Part shown: piece by piece, positions 39,821-40,331 of the stretch
How positions within the stretch are numbered: the stretch's first letter is position 1
Layout of the letters: every line of letters starts with the position of its first letter
Sequence record: OZ336096.1
Length of the DNA: 64,000 nucleotides
Reading direction: 5' to 3' (one strand)
From: a phage
Program-made: the position numbers and the translations under genes
Notes under the pieces: generated by a model
Told to the model about the DNA's origin: nothing
What the model saw: only the letters and a program-made list of their open reading frames with translations
The model's database searches: none

Positions 39821-40168
39821 ATGACATTTAAAGAGTTCTGCCAAGCTACTTTCATAATTGTTTTCTTAGTTGGAGCAGGTGTCTGGGGAGGATACTCTTA
39901 CAGAGACTACCAAGTTGCTGAAGCTGAGCTAAATAATGAGAAACTAATAAGTGTTGCTAAAGATGCTTATCAGGAAGGTTTAGCCACACTCAGCACCAAT
40001 TACAAAAATGATTTGAAAGACGTGCTTGCTAAGAATAAGCACACAAAAGAGGTACTAACATATGAAAAGACTAAGCCAGAGTTTTATAATGTTTGTGTTA
40101 CTGATAATTATGTCAGGGTGTTCAACGAACAAAGTGAACAGTACATTCAAAAACTCCCAAGTAAGTGA
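39821..40168 (+). CDS. putative i-spanin (Rz-like)
   Basis: 115 aa; N-terminal TM helix FIIVFLVGAGVWGG then charged coiled-coil-like region. Confidence 0.4.
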   Translation: MTFKEFCQATFIIVFLVGAGVWGGYSYRDYQVAEAELNNEKLISVAKDAYQEGLATLSTNYKNDLKDVLAKNKHTKEVLTYEKTKPEFYNVCVTDNYVRVFNEQSEQYIQKLPSK

Positions 40169-40331
40169 GAGTGACAAGTACACTCAAGAAGAGTCAAGAT
40201 TCACTGTCAAAGGTAATACTGGTAGTGATGTGGCAGCAGCCCTTGAGTTTTATCGTGATGGTTTTTACCAGTGCACAATCAAAGCTAATAACCTTATTGA
40301 CATGATTTTATTAGGGAACAAACAGCAATGA
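40062..40331 (+). CDS. putative o-spanin lipoprotein (Rz1-like), overlapping the i-spanin 3' end in another frame
   Basis: 89 aa; signal peptide with lipobox IMSGC; start embedded in the upstream gene. Confidence 0.4.
   Translation: MKRLSQSFIMFVLLIIMSGCSTNKVNSTFKNSQVSESDKYTQEESRFTVKGNTGSDVAAALEFYRDGFYQCTIKANNLIDMILLGNKQQ

Follow-up and report, generated by a model that had tools for sequence, protein, structure and literature searches.

A probable overlapped two-component spanin of the Felix O1 type, encoded apart from the endolysin gene in a Felixounavirus genome

The stretch of DNA analysed here (hereafter the window; 64,000 nucleotides of phage sequence record OZ336096.1) is part of a Felixounavirus genome and shares 97% identity with the Escherichia coli phages PHB11 and warpig. 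Two genes that overlap in different frames of the same strand encode a small membrane protein and a small lipoprotein, which we refer to below as the i-spanin and the o-spanin. The features of the pair and of its surroundings are collected in Table 1.

Table 1. Features of the putative spanin locus and its genomic surroundings (positions are those of the window).
Feature	Coordinates	Strand	Basis
Secreted Vs.1-family protein (context only)	38072..38620	+	T4 Vs.1 homology; GH23/SLT motifs
Terminator-like hairpin AGGCTCC-TTCG-GGAGCCT with T run, just upstream of i-spanin gene	39780..39803	+	Terminator scan
i-spanin Shine-Dalgarno AGGAG	39808..39812	+	Read from sequence
i-spanin gene, 115 aa	39821..40168	+	ORF; phrog_1152; i-spanin annotation in warpig, Mijalis and others
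i-spanin TM helix, about residues 6-27, FCQATFIIVFLVGAGVWGGYSY	39836..39901	+	Kyte-Doolittle
o-spanin Shine-Dalgarno AAGAGG, inside i-spanin gene, 9 nt upstream of ATG 40062	40047..40052	+	Sequence
o-spanin gene, 89-aa precursor, 70-aa mature lipoprotein	40062..40331	+	ORF; phrog_4180, phrog_456; Mijalis; SpaninDB
Lipoprotein signal peptide MKRLSQSFIMFVLLIIMSG plus Cys20 (codon 40119-40121)	40062..40121	+	Pattern check
Dual-coding overlap, 107 nt, i residues 81-115 / o residues 1-35	40062..40168	+	Codon-position variability
i-spanin C-terminal motif E82...N90-x-C92...Y97...N102	40064..40129	+	Alignment of 8 relatives
o-spanin Cys71 codon, periplasmic, in block EFYRDGFYQC-IK-N-LID	40272..40274	+	Alignment of 8 relatives
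GH24 T4-lysozyme-type soluble endolysin	53850..54314	-	PF00959, E 7e-41; phrog_7 endolysin, E 1e-56

The product of the upstream gene begins with MTFKEFCQATFIIVFLVGAGVWGGYSY. Its sole hydrophobic segment spans residues 6-24 (maximum 19-residue Kyte-Doolittle mean, 1.75); a hydrophobic N-terminal segment is found in 8/8 family members, with G24 invariant. The predicted periplasmic part comprises 88 hydrophilic residues, 31% of them charged. One N-terminal TM helix and a charged periplasmic domain are thus both present, as the preliminary description of this DNA had reported, and the protein is predicted to be a type II inner-membrane protein (N-in/C-out) whose short N-terminus faces the cytoplasm. 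In an alignment of eight relatives (23-77% identity), the invariant residues E82, N90, C92, Y97, and N102 define the only invariant periplasmic block, which is coded wholly inside the overlap and is presumably the site of contact with the o-spanin, of disulfide formation, or of both.

The downstream gene encodes a precursor that starts with MKRLSQSFIMFVLLIIMSG followed by CSTNK, and the IMSGC lipobox described earlier is exactly in place, with IMSG preceding Cys20 and Ser at +2. The N-terminus carries a K/R among its first seven residues and an uncharged hydrophobic core ahead of the lipobox, and it satisfies the PROSITE-type lipoprotein rule (PS51257 type) as coded; this is a rule-based result and not a predictor score. 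As the +2 residue is Ser, there is no Asp inner-membrane retention signal. Cys20 is invariant in 8/8 relatives, in all of which the n-region is basic and the h-region hydrophobic, and C71, N76, and L78 are likewise invariant in the alignment of eight relatives. A six-frame scan of the window returned two ORFs that pass the lipoprotein-signal filter, namely the o-spanin and an unrelated ORF at 5144-5401 on the minus strand. The latter was considered as a second o-spanin and rejected, as it has no i-spanin-like neighbour and its PHROG has no assigned function.

The o-spanin gene starts at +241 of the i-spanin gene in the +1 frame and ends 163 nt beyond the i-spanin stop codon. Neither frame is interrupted or gapped in seven Ounavirinae genomes (78-97% DNA identity). 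[quoted passage not shown] This shows purifying selection on the i frame before the overlap, on the o frame after it, and on both frames within it. The third frame of the overlap is full of stop codons in 7/7 genomes, and the overlapping ORF pair is more than a chance arrangement.

Both proteins have counterparts in phage protein families. The i-spanin matches phrog_1152 (‘Rz-like spanin’; E 9e-42) and the o-spanin matches phrog_4180 (E 9e-51) and phrog_456 (‘Rz-like spanin’; E 6e-5). None of the spanin models in Pfam or NCBIfam matches either protein, and sub-threshold hits from these two collections to SH3b_T, NAGLU_N, ComB-like, and lipo_LytA models were dismissed as noise. Single-sequence AlphaFold2 models of the two subunits are of low confidence (mean pLDDT 51 and 54), and their secondary structure lends weak support. 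Many GenBank records annotate the same pair as i-spanin/o-spanin, and the genome announcements of phages Mijalis and Moogle call it a spanin complex.

The pair is in fact the catalogued Felix O1 spanin, already known and published. The SpaninDB entry for Felix01 classes it as ‘ovl’, with the i-spanin at 5330..5678 and the o-spanin at 5571..5841, and gives a 348-nt i-spanin (115 aa), a 107-nt overlap in the +1 frame, and an 89-aa o-spanin with 70 mature residues (Kongari et al., 2018; PMC6139136). The same entry assigns the i-spanin to family JH2, in which PhiEco32 is included, with one periplasmic Cys, and records the same Shine-Dalgarno context (PMC6139136). Felix O1 p014, as compared here, differs from the i-spanin of the window by three substitutions in 115 aa (counted by eye); the two pairs are essentially the same genes in the same Shine-Dalgarno context, with strain-level substitutions only. 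The overlapped i-spanin/o-spanin arrangement proposed in the preliminary description is therefore borne out by database annotation, by phrog_1152, and by the SpaninDB Felix01 entry. By the class criteria for overlapped two-component spanins (Summer et al., 2007; Kongari et al., 2018), the pair is very probably a two-component spanin of overlapped architecture, belonging to a Felix O1-like myophage. The assignment of spanin function draws on the architecture, the context of the homologues, and analogy; we found no experimental test of the Felix O1/JH2/phiEco32 family in the literature.

Homologues of the pair extend well beyond the Felixounaviruses. The eight relatives compared (23-82% identity) come from four phage groups, namely Ounavirinae, Kuravirus phiEco32, the siphophages Isfahan and Carvaje, and the P2-like YenM_324, and all of them retain the TM helix, the Cys of the lipobox, and one periplasmic Cys in each subunit. 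phiEco32 (gp39 and an overlapped ORF), YenM_324, Carvaje, and Isfahan, which are podo-, sipho-, and P2-like phages, encode homologues of both subunits at 23-34% identity with the same +1 overlap, although some of their o-spanins have extra cysteines. Blocks shared by these four phages and the window are EK-x-KPVF-N-x-C-x-TD-x-Y...FNE in the i-spanin and Y...Y..C....N.L in the o-spanin. The periplasmic cysteines of the window pair, C92 of the i-spanin and C71 of the o-spanin, are each invariant across the family. Two of the distant pairs lie in classical lysis cassettes, with the annotated order holin-endolysin-Rz-like spanin-O-spanin in Yersinia phage vB_YenM_324 and holin-lysozyme-membrane protein-Rz-like spanin in Klebsiella phage Carvaje. 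In Proteus phage Isfahan, a TIGR02594-family protein, which we take to be of an endolysin family, is encoded immediately before the pair, and the pair thus probably adjoins an endolysin gene. [quoted passage not shown]

The window pair resembles lambda Rz/Rz1 in several respects. Both consist of an inner-membrane subunit with an N-terminal TM helix and an outer-membrane lipoprotein encoded in the +1 frame, both have periplasmic cysteines available for intermolecular disulfides, and both presumably share the function of disrupting the outer membrane after murein degradation. The lambda Rz1 gene is fully embedded in Rz, whereas the o-spanin gene of the window runs past the i-spanin stop codon, as in the ‘overlapped’ class, and Rz/Rz1 lie in a lysis cassette while the window pair does not. 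Sequence homology to Rz/Rz1 is not detectable: no Pfam Rz or Rz1 model (Phage_lysis / Rz1) was among the matches at E up to 0.1. The pair would thus work like Rz/Rz1 but stands outside those sequence families. Lambda Rz1 is a proline-rich protein of 40 aa, whereas the 70 residues of the mature o-spanin in the window include no proline. The SpaninDB entry for the Felix01 i-spanin predicts no coiled coil (PMC6139136) and, together with the proline-free o-spanin, this argues against simply carrying over the lambda model of a coiled coil and a proline-rich partner.

Since the window pair adjoins a homologue of pseT, homology to the spanins of T4, PseT.3 and PseT.2, was tested. Each pair is separated from pseT by one small gene, and the two phages share a neighbourhood in kind (rII genes, vs.1 and pseT homologues). 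As compiled in SpaninDB, the T4 spanin genes are also unlinked from those of the holin and endolysin, and PseT.3 lacks a periplasmic Cys while PseT.2 has two, in contrast to the single invariant Cys of each window subunit (PMC6139136). The T4 genes overlap by 4 nt and lie upstream of pseT, whereas the window pair lies downstream of the pseT homologue. BLASTP of the window subunits against PseT.3 and PseT.2 gave E values of 17 and 8.3, that is, no similarity. Shared ancestry with the T4 spanins was consequently dropped as unsupported by BLASTP; the order relative to pseT is reversed and the neighbourhood alone is similar. The o-spanin had earlier been described as longer than typical Rz1 proteins, which stands against lambda Rz1 but not against its own family (82-98 aa across eight members), the similarly sized T4 PseT.2 (99-aa precursor), or the overlapped class, whose o-spanins range from about 65 to 167 aa among the SpaninDB entries compared (PMC6139136).

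The o-spanin is translated from its own Shine-Dalgarno in the +1 frame; the further steps by which the pair could act are drawn by analogy with lambda Rz/Rz1 and T4 PseT.3/PseT.2. Export of the precursor would be followed by lipidation at Cys20 and cleavage by signal peptidase II. As Ser and not Asp follows Cys20, the Lol pathway would then direct the lipoprotein to the outer membrane, into its inner leaflet. Across the periplasm, the two subunits may bind each other through their conserved C-terminal blocks, where C92 and C71 would probably be locked by DsbA-dependent intermolecular disulfides, and the resulting complexes would stay threaded through the murein meshwork until its degradation. 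Once a holin frees the soluble GH24 endolysin and the murein is degraded, the released complexes would move laterally, change conformation, and fuse the inner and outer membranes, which would remove the last barrier to virion release. We consider it unlikely that spanins of the Felix O1/phiEco32 family act in a manner unlike that of lambda, in which a heterotypic i-o disulfide at the C-terminal interface might join the subunits instead of homotypic dimer disulfides. Such a bond is suggested by the single invariant periplasmic Cys that each subunit has inside its only strongly conserved block (N-x-C92...Y...FNE in the i-spanin, Y-x-x-C71...N-x-L in the o-spanin), by the lack of a predicted coiled coil in the i-spanin, and by the lack of proline in the o-spanin. 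A weaker addition to this proposal is that the Vs.1-type GH23 protein encoded two genes upstream might help the complex to assemble through the murein.

The signal-peptide protein noted earlier near the pair, the possible second murein hydrolase of the preliminary description, is indeed present and has SLT-type motifs. It is a homologue of T4 Vs.1 (31.6% identity, E 5e-9), with matches in 2,129 phage records, and contains the GH23/SLT catalytic motifs E59-S, GxFQN, and SYNAG, of which E59, Q78, and S136-Y137-N138-x-G140 are invariant in nine Vs.1-type homologues. The Pfam SLT model PF01464 gave E 1.2e-3 and 18.9 bits, under its cut-off of 21.3. A phmmer search of the PDB with a single Vs.1-like sequence gave no match, and a profile of nine Vs.1-type sequences reached goose-type lysozymes at a marginal E of 0.03-0.04. 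Proximity is the protein’s only tie to the spanins.

The spanin pair is not linked to a lysis cassette in this genome: it sits in a rIIA-rIIB-vs.1-pseT block with no adjacent holin gene. Spanins of this class are usually linked to such a cassette, but linkage is no requirement, and T4 sets the precedent for unlinked spanins. The lysozyme gene had been placed about 14 kb away on the other strand, which is correct (13.5 kb from the o-spanin stop codon); such a distance is not unusual. For Felix O1-like phages, lysis genes have been described as ‘scattered around the genome’ (PMC4319497), and the same has been published for T4 (PMC6139136, PMC3185647); spanins apart from the endolysin are normal in both. 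The endolysin itself has no N-terminal hydrophobic segment. A holin search, suggested in the preliminary description, was negative, with 0/9 membrane or small proteins of the window matching a holin PHROG or Pfam. The window starts within thyA and for this reason lacks a homologue of CPT_Moogle54, the ‘putative holin’ of phage Moogle, whose gene adjoins thyA. As for transcription, the Mijalis record has a terminator where the terminator-like hairpin lies here, the T4-type late promoter motif TATAAATA does not occur between 37900 and 40400, and sigma-70-like matches are at shuffle level (nine found, 8.9 expected), leaving the pair with no recognisable promoter of its own.

This setting is what could speak for an envelope-spanning complex with another role, such as superinfection exclusion or lysis-timing signalling. 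Such a role would fit the early/middle rIIA-rIIB-vs.1-pseT block, the distance from the endolysin gene, the adjacent rII genes (labelled lysis inhibitors in PHROG), and the upstream terminator without a promoter of the pair’s own. No published experiment on this family was found, and the second, unrelated lipoprotein at 5144-5401 illustrates that these phages encode other small envelope lipoproteins. However, homologues of both subunits are found at the spanin position of holin-endolysin-spanin cassettes annotated in unrelated phages, and the experimentally studied spanins of T4 are also unlinked from t and e and lie beside pseT. The 64 kb hold no other spanin candidate, the second ORF with a lipoprotein signal having no i-spanin-like neighbour. 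We regard a different role as unlikely.

It is very unlikely that the 115-aa membrane protein alone represents a genuine gene and that the o ORF is either untranslated or starts at ATG 40110 (‘MSGC...’), in which case it would have no signal peptide and would not be a lipoprotein. Existing annotations lend themselves to this reading: the o-spanin CDSs annotated in warpig, Sf14, typing phage 1, Hafnia phage SarahDanielle, and YenM_324 are shorter, with starts at the lipobox or downstream of it, some records lack an o-spanin annotation, and one Felixounavirus was reported with an i-spanin only (PMC8300805). Nevertheless, of the in-frame ATGs at 40062, 40089, and 40110, the first alone is preceded by a Shine-Dalgarno; the basic n-region and hydrophobic h-region before the Cys are kept in 8/8 relatives at 23-82% identity, and third-position freedom is lost over the whole overlap from 40062 onwards. 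The curated CPT annotation of Mijalis gives the o-spanin the same start offset (+241), with an RBS at the equivalent site, and the long form is also the one entered in SpaninDB, whose authors remark that gene callers systematically miss o-spanin genes or misplace their starts (PMC6139136). Equally hard to credit is a decaying or redundant spanin whose task of disrupting the outer membrane falls to some other product, for example a unimolecular spanin or a peptide of the disruptin type. Of the genome of roughly 87 kb, about 23 kb lie outside the window and could encode such a product. Against this, both ORFs are uninterrupted and show purifying selection in all genomes examined, 212 phage records contain an i-spanin of at least 95% identity, and none of the ORFs in the window has both a lipobox and a TM helix at its C-terminus, the signature of a u-spanin.

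An overlapped two-component spanin therefore remains the preferred reading of the locus. Its value as a discovery is small, as the pair is catalogued and its distance from the endolysin is a published trait. The practical value lies in annotation, because the o-spanin is missing from many Felixounavirus and related records, or is given a start at the lipobox or beyond it and so loses its signal peptide; its correct start is the ATG preceded by a Shine-Dalgarno, 241 nt into the i-spanin gene. Felix O1-like phages serve the biocontrol of Salmonella and E. coli, an application that benefits from knowing all the lysis genes. The Felix O1/JH2/phiEco32 spanin family is widespread, and it is without the lambda-like coiled-coil and proline-rich features.

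The overlapping gene pair proposed as i-spanin/o-spanin in the preliminary description was confirmed, and the ORF list holds both reading frames at exactly the coordinates claimed. The i-spanin has a single hydrophobic stretch (residues 6–24, Kyte-Doolittle mean 1.75), and its remainder comprises 88 hydrophilic residues, 31% of which are charged. The o-spanin starts with MKRLSQSFIMFVLLIIMSG followed by CSTNK. Its first seven residues include K/R, its hydrophobic core is uncharged, and its lipobox, I-M-S-G-C, has Cys20 followed by Ser at +2. This N-terminus, with the IMSGC lipobox reported earlier, fits a PROSITE-type lipoprotein rule. 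A six-frame scan of the 64-kb window found only two ORFs that pass the lipoprotein-signal filter, the o-spanin and an unrelated ORF at 5144–5401 (−). The two spanin genes overlap by 107 nt, with the o-spanin in the +1 frame relative to the i-spanin, and each has its own Shine-Dalgarno sequence, while the in-frame ATGs at 40089 and 40110, downstream of the o-spanin start, have none. The mature o-spanin contains no proline. Single-sequence AlphaFold models of the two subunits were poor (pLDDT 51 and 54).

Coordinates of the spanin pair, its neighbours, and the endolysin gene
Feature	Position	Strand	Remarks
rIIA	34416–36782		upstream of the spanin pair
rIIB	36862–37971		after rIIA
Vs.1-family secreted protein with GH23/SLT motifs	38072–38620	+	T4 Vs.1 homologue, 31.6% identity, E 5e-9
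pseT-like PNK	38598–39293		after the vs.1-like gene
Terminator-like hairpin	39780–39797		precedes the spanin pair
Shine-Dalgarno AGGAG	39808–39812	+	i-spanin
i-spanin ORF	39821–40168	+	115 aa
Shine-Dalgarno AAGAGG	40047–40052	+	o-spanin
o-spanin ORF	40062–40331	+	89 aa
GH24 lysozyme	53850–54314	−	PF00959, E 7e-41; phrog_7 endolysin, E 1e-56

Selection was examined in the same 511-nt segment of seven Ounavirinae genomes sharing 78–97% DNA identity (the window, warpig, typing phage 1, pEC-M719-6WT.1, Mijalis, Sf14, and SUSP1). None of the seven has a gap or a disruption in either spanin ORF, and in each of them the third frame is stop-rich. The fractions of variable sites at codon positions 1/2/3 are 0.23/0.16/0.60 in the i-only segment (i frame) and 0.25/0.15/0.78 in the o-only segment (o frame), compared with 0.24/0.17/0.26 in the overlap (i frame), where the codon periodicity of variation is lost. 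Third-position freedom is significantly reduced in the overlap in both frames (Fisher p = 1e-3 for the i frame and 7e-7 for the o frame). Purifying selection acts on both frames, the pattern that marks a genuine dual-coding region.

In PHROGs, the i-spanin matched phrog_1152 ‘Rz-like spanin’ (E 9e-42), and the o-spanin matched the unnamed phrog_4180 (E 9e-51), with a weaker match to phrog_456 ‘Rz-like spanin’ (E 6e-5); neither subunit had a meaningful match in Pfam or NCBIfam. Searches with tblastn located the i-spanin in 403 phage records and the o-spanin in 320, with hits beyond the Ounavirinae in podophages of the genus Kuravirus (phiEco32 group), siphophages of Proteus and Klebsiella, and a P2-like phage of Yersinia. 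Pairs were extracted from phiEa21-4, Hafnia phage SarahDanielle, phiEco32, Proteus phage Isfahan, Klebsiella phage Carvaje, and Yersinia phage vB_YenM_324, and in all six the 3′-end of a gene for an N-terminal-TM protein is overlapped in the +1 frame by a lipobox-bearing ORF. Eight-member alignments identified G24, E82, N90, C92, Y97, and N102 as invariant in the i-spanin (23–77% identity to the window protein), and L4, C20 (the lipobox Cys), G54, C71, N76, and L78 in the o-spanin (23–82% identity). Each subunit has exactly one invariant periplasmic Cys, located inside its conserved C-terminal block, and the overlap encodes every invariant periplasmic residue of the i-spanin. YenM_324 is annotated in the order holin, endolysin, Rz-like spanin, and O-spanin, and Carvaje in the order holin, lysozyme, membrane protein, and Rz-like spanin; in Carvaje, the overlapped lipoprotein is unannotated. 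In Isfahan, the pair directly follows a protein of TIGR02594, which we take to be an endolysin family. From these gene orders, the homologues occupy the spanin slot of classical cassettes.

Megablast of positions 38000–41000 matched 258 GenBank phage records, 243 of which cover at least 80% of the query; the best matches are the E. coli phages PHB11 and warpig (97.3% identity). Nearly all are Felixounavirus or other Ounavirinae infecting Escherichia, Salmonella, Shigella, and Citrobacter, so the window represents a ~64-kb portion of the genome of a Felix O1-like myophage, whose relatives have records of ~84–90 kb. The 24 tRNA genes clustered at 58606–63556 (+) are comparable in number to the 22 reported in Felix O1 and 25 in Mijalis (PMC5543628).

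The spanin pair is already known in every respect, because published entries, genome announcements, and the curated Mijalis record match the window. Overlapped spanins described by Kongari et al. (2018; PMC6139136) include those of Felix01, FO1a, and UAB_phi87, and their ‘JH2’ i-spanin family comprises Felix01, Moogle, Mushroom, FSL_SP-010/012/107, WV8, and PhiEco32. In SpaninDB, the supplementary spanin census of that study, the Felix01 entry (NC_005282.1) is classed ‘ovl’, with the i-spanin p014 at 5330..5678, the o-spanin at 5571..5841, and an overlap of 107. The entry gives an i-spanin of 115 aa, of which 88 are periplasmic and include a single Cys, an o-spanin of 89 aa with a mature form of 70 aa, and the Shine-Dalgarno context tttttcatttcAGGAGattgttaa, which is also found in the window. 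By its Jpred estimates, the periplasmic domain of the i-spanin is 66% helix and 10% strand and the mature o-spanin is 20% helix and 16% strand, and no coiled coil is predicted (PMC6139136). The Mijalis announcement mentions ‘an overlapping bimolecular spanin complex’ (PMC5543628), and the Moogle announcement likewise names the pair a spanin complex (PMC4319497). In the curated record of Mijalis, the o-spanin, which has an annotated RBS, starts exactly 241 nt inside the i-spanin gene, the same offset as in the window. Together, the PHROGs family, the dual-frame selection, and the published Felix01 entry support the i-spanin/o-spanin interpretation as first put forward. No experimental test of the widespread Felix O1/JH2/phiEco32 spanin family was found in the literature.

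The GenBank o-spanins of warpig, Sf14, typing phage 1, Hafnia phage SarahDanielle, and YenM_324 start at or after the lipobox, with loss of the signal peptide; that of warpig is annotated from the equivalent of window position 40110 (‘MSGC...’). Some records omit the o-spanin, and the SarahDanielle record labels both genes of the pair ‘o-spanin’. These misstarts are systematic annotation errors that fit the gene-caller bias against correct o-spanin calls described by Kongari et al. (PMC6139136). Both the placement of the Shine-Dalgarno sequence and the conservation of the signal peptide support the long form, as used in the preliminary description.

The order rIIA, rIIB, vs.1-like gene, pseT-like PNK, one unknown gene, and spanins recalls the neighbourhood in T4. 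However, T4 is transcribed in the order pseT.3 (i-spanin), pseT.2 (o-spanin), pseT.1, and pseT, such that the spanin order relative to pseT is reversed in the window. Since BLASTP detected no similarity between the window and T4 spanins, homology is not demonstrated, and the two share only a similar genomic ‘address’.

The pair has two membrane-targeting signals of the right kind and separate translation starts, along with selection on both frames; its family has one-Cys conserved C-terminal blocks and a cassette context in homologues. By analogy with lambda Rz/Rz1 and T4 PseT.3/PseT.2 (summarized in PMC6139136), the i-spanin would anchor in the inner membrane, and the o-spanin would be lipidated at Cys20 and then sorted to the outer membrane. 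Their C-terminal regions would bind across the periplasm, stabilized by Dsb-dependent intermolecular disulfides, either of the homotypic kind seen in lambda or of a heterotypic kind. After the GH24 endolysin had been released with the help of a holin and the murein had been degraded, the freed spanin complexes would fuse both membranes. No T4-type late promoter motif was found for the pair, and sigma-70-like promoter matches were no more frequent than at shuffle level. The stop codon of the o-spanin and the start codon of the next gene overlap (ATGA, 40328–40331), suggesting that the pair belongs to a longer unit with translational coupling.

The GH24 lysozyme, which lacks an N-terminal hydrophobic segment, does lie far away on the opposite strand, 13.5 kb from the o-spanin stop. 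Such separation of spanins and endolysin is the published norm in Felix O1 (PMC3185647; PMC4319497) and T4 (PMC6139136). A holin search, as suggested earlier, was run and gave no holin family match among the small membrane proteins in the window. Seven of these are encoded at 24963–25349 (+), 25337–25552 (+), 50999–51532 (−), 44024–44356 (+), 22236–22442 (+), 34211–34387 (+), and 61639–62196 (+), and belong to families without known function (phrog_8826, 11929, 4343, 4375, 4532, 3931, and phrog_2143/DUF7338, respectively). In Moogle, a ‘putative holin’ adjoins thyA, and as the window begins inside thyA, the homologue would lie just beyond its left edge; the Felix O1 genome paper gives candidate holins only (PMC3185647). 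The o-spanin, previously considered longer than typical Rz1 proteins, is so only against lambda, and not against its own family (82–98 aa) or T4 PseT.2 (99 aa); overlapped-class o-spanins in SpaninDB span at least ~65 to 167 aa (PMC6139136).

Several other elements were observed in the window. A group I intron at 23573–23954 (+), between ORFs 22491–23690 and 24085–24951, interrupts nrdD, the gene for anaerobic ribonucleotide reductase. It matches the full length of the Rfam RF00028 model (54.5 bits against a gathering score of 50; E 8e-13), and no homing endonuclease ORF was seen within it. Unlike the window, Moogle has an uninterrupted 2,142-nt nrdD CDS, and no introns were reported for Felix O1 (PMC3185647); the window phage therefore bears a T4-like nrdD intron. 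An 883-bp perfectly identical direct repeat (31481–32363 and 32401–33283, +; period 920, 37-nt spacer) sits in a nicotinamide/nicotinate phosphoribosyltransferase gene, splitting it into overlapping ORFs (31139–32419 and 32368–33840) with ~300 identical residues in common, whereas Moogle has one 1,818-nt gene. Either the repeat is an artefact of assembly or circularization, or a tandem duplication arose very recently and disrupts the gene. Four consecutive paralogous ORFs of ~140–160 aa at 28470–30196 (+) form a tandem gene family with a common C-terminal motif, ...EAVEHCKK..I..K..K(I/V)IWE. The second lipoprotein-signal ORF, at 5144–5401 (−), encodes 85 aa (MNNKVKSCVKAMVALGVIFLAG followed by CNPSYEN; phrog_902, without assigned function). 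It lies between a DNA ligase gene and homing-endonuclease-like genes with no i-spanin-like neighbour, and its product might be a superinfection-exclusion or receptor-blocking lipoprotein.

The vs.1-like gene, which overlaps the PNK gene start by 23 nt, had been described as encoding a signal-peptide lytic transglycosylase. Members of its family were matched in 2,129 phage records, among them those of T4, the Ackermannviridae, and large phages of Vibrio and Aeromonas. All nine aligned homologues have a signal peptide and invariant E59(-S/T), G-x-(F/M/Y)-Q-N, and S-Y-N-x-G, which are motifs of GH23/SLT enzymes. Model-based support for the enzymatic assignment is weak: Pfam SLT scored 18.9 bits (below the 21.3-bit cut-off), the single sequence had no match in the PDB, and the family profile matched goose-type lysozymes weakly (E 0.03–0.04). 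In that alignment, the invariant Glu coincides with ‘RES’ of the lysozyme chain, which holds the catalytic Glu of that enzyme. The protein is therefore probably a GH23-type enzyme, and proximity alone ties it to the spanins.
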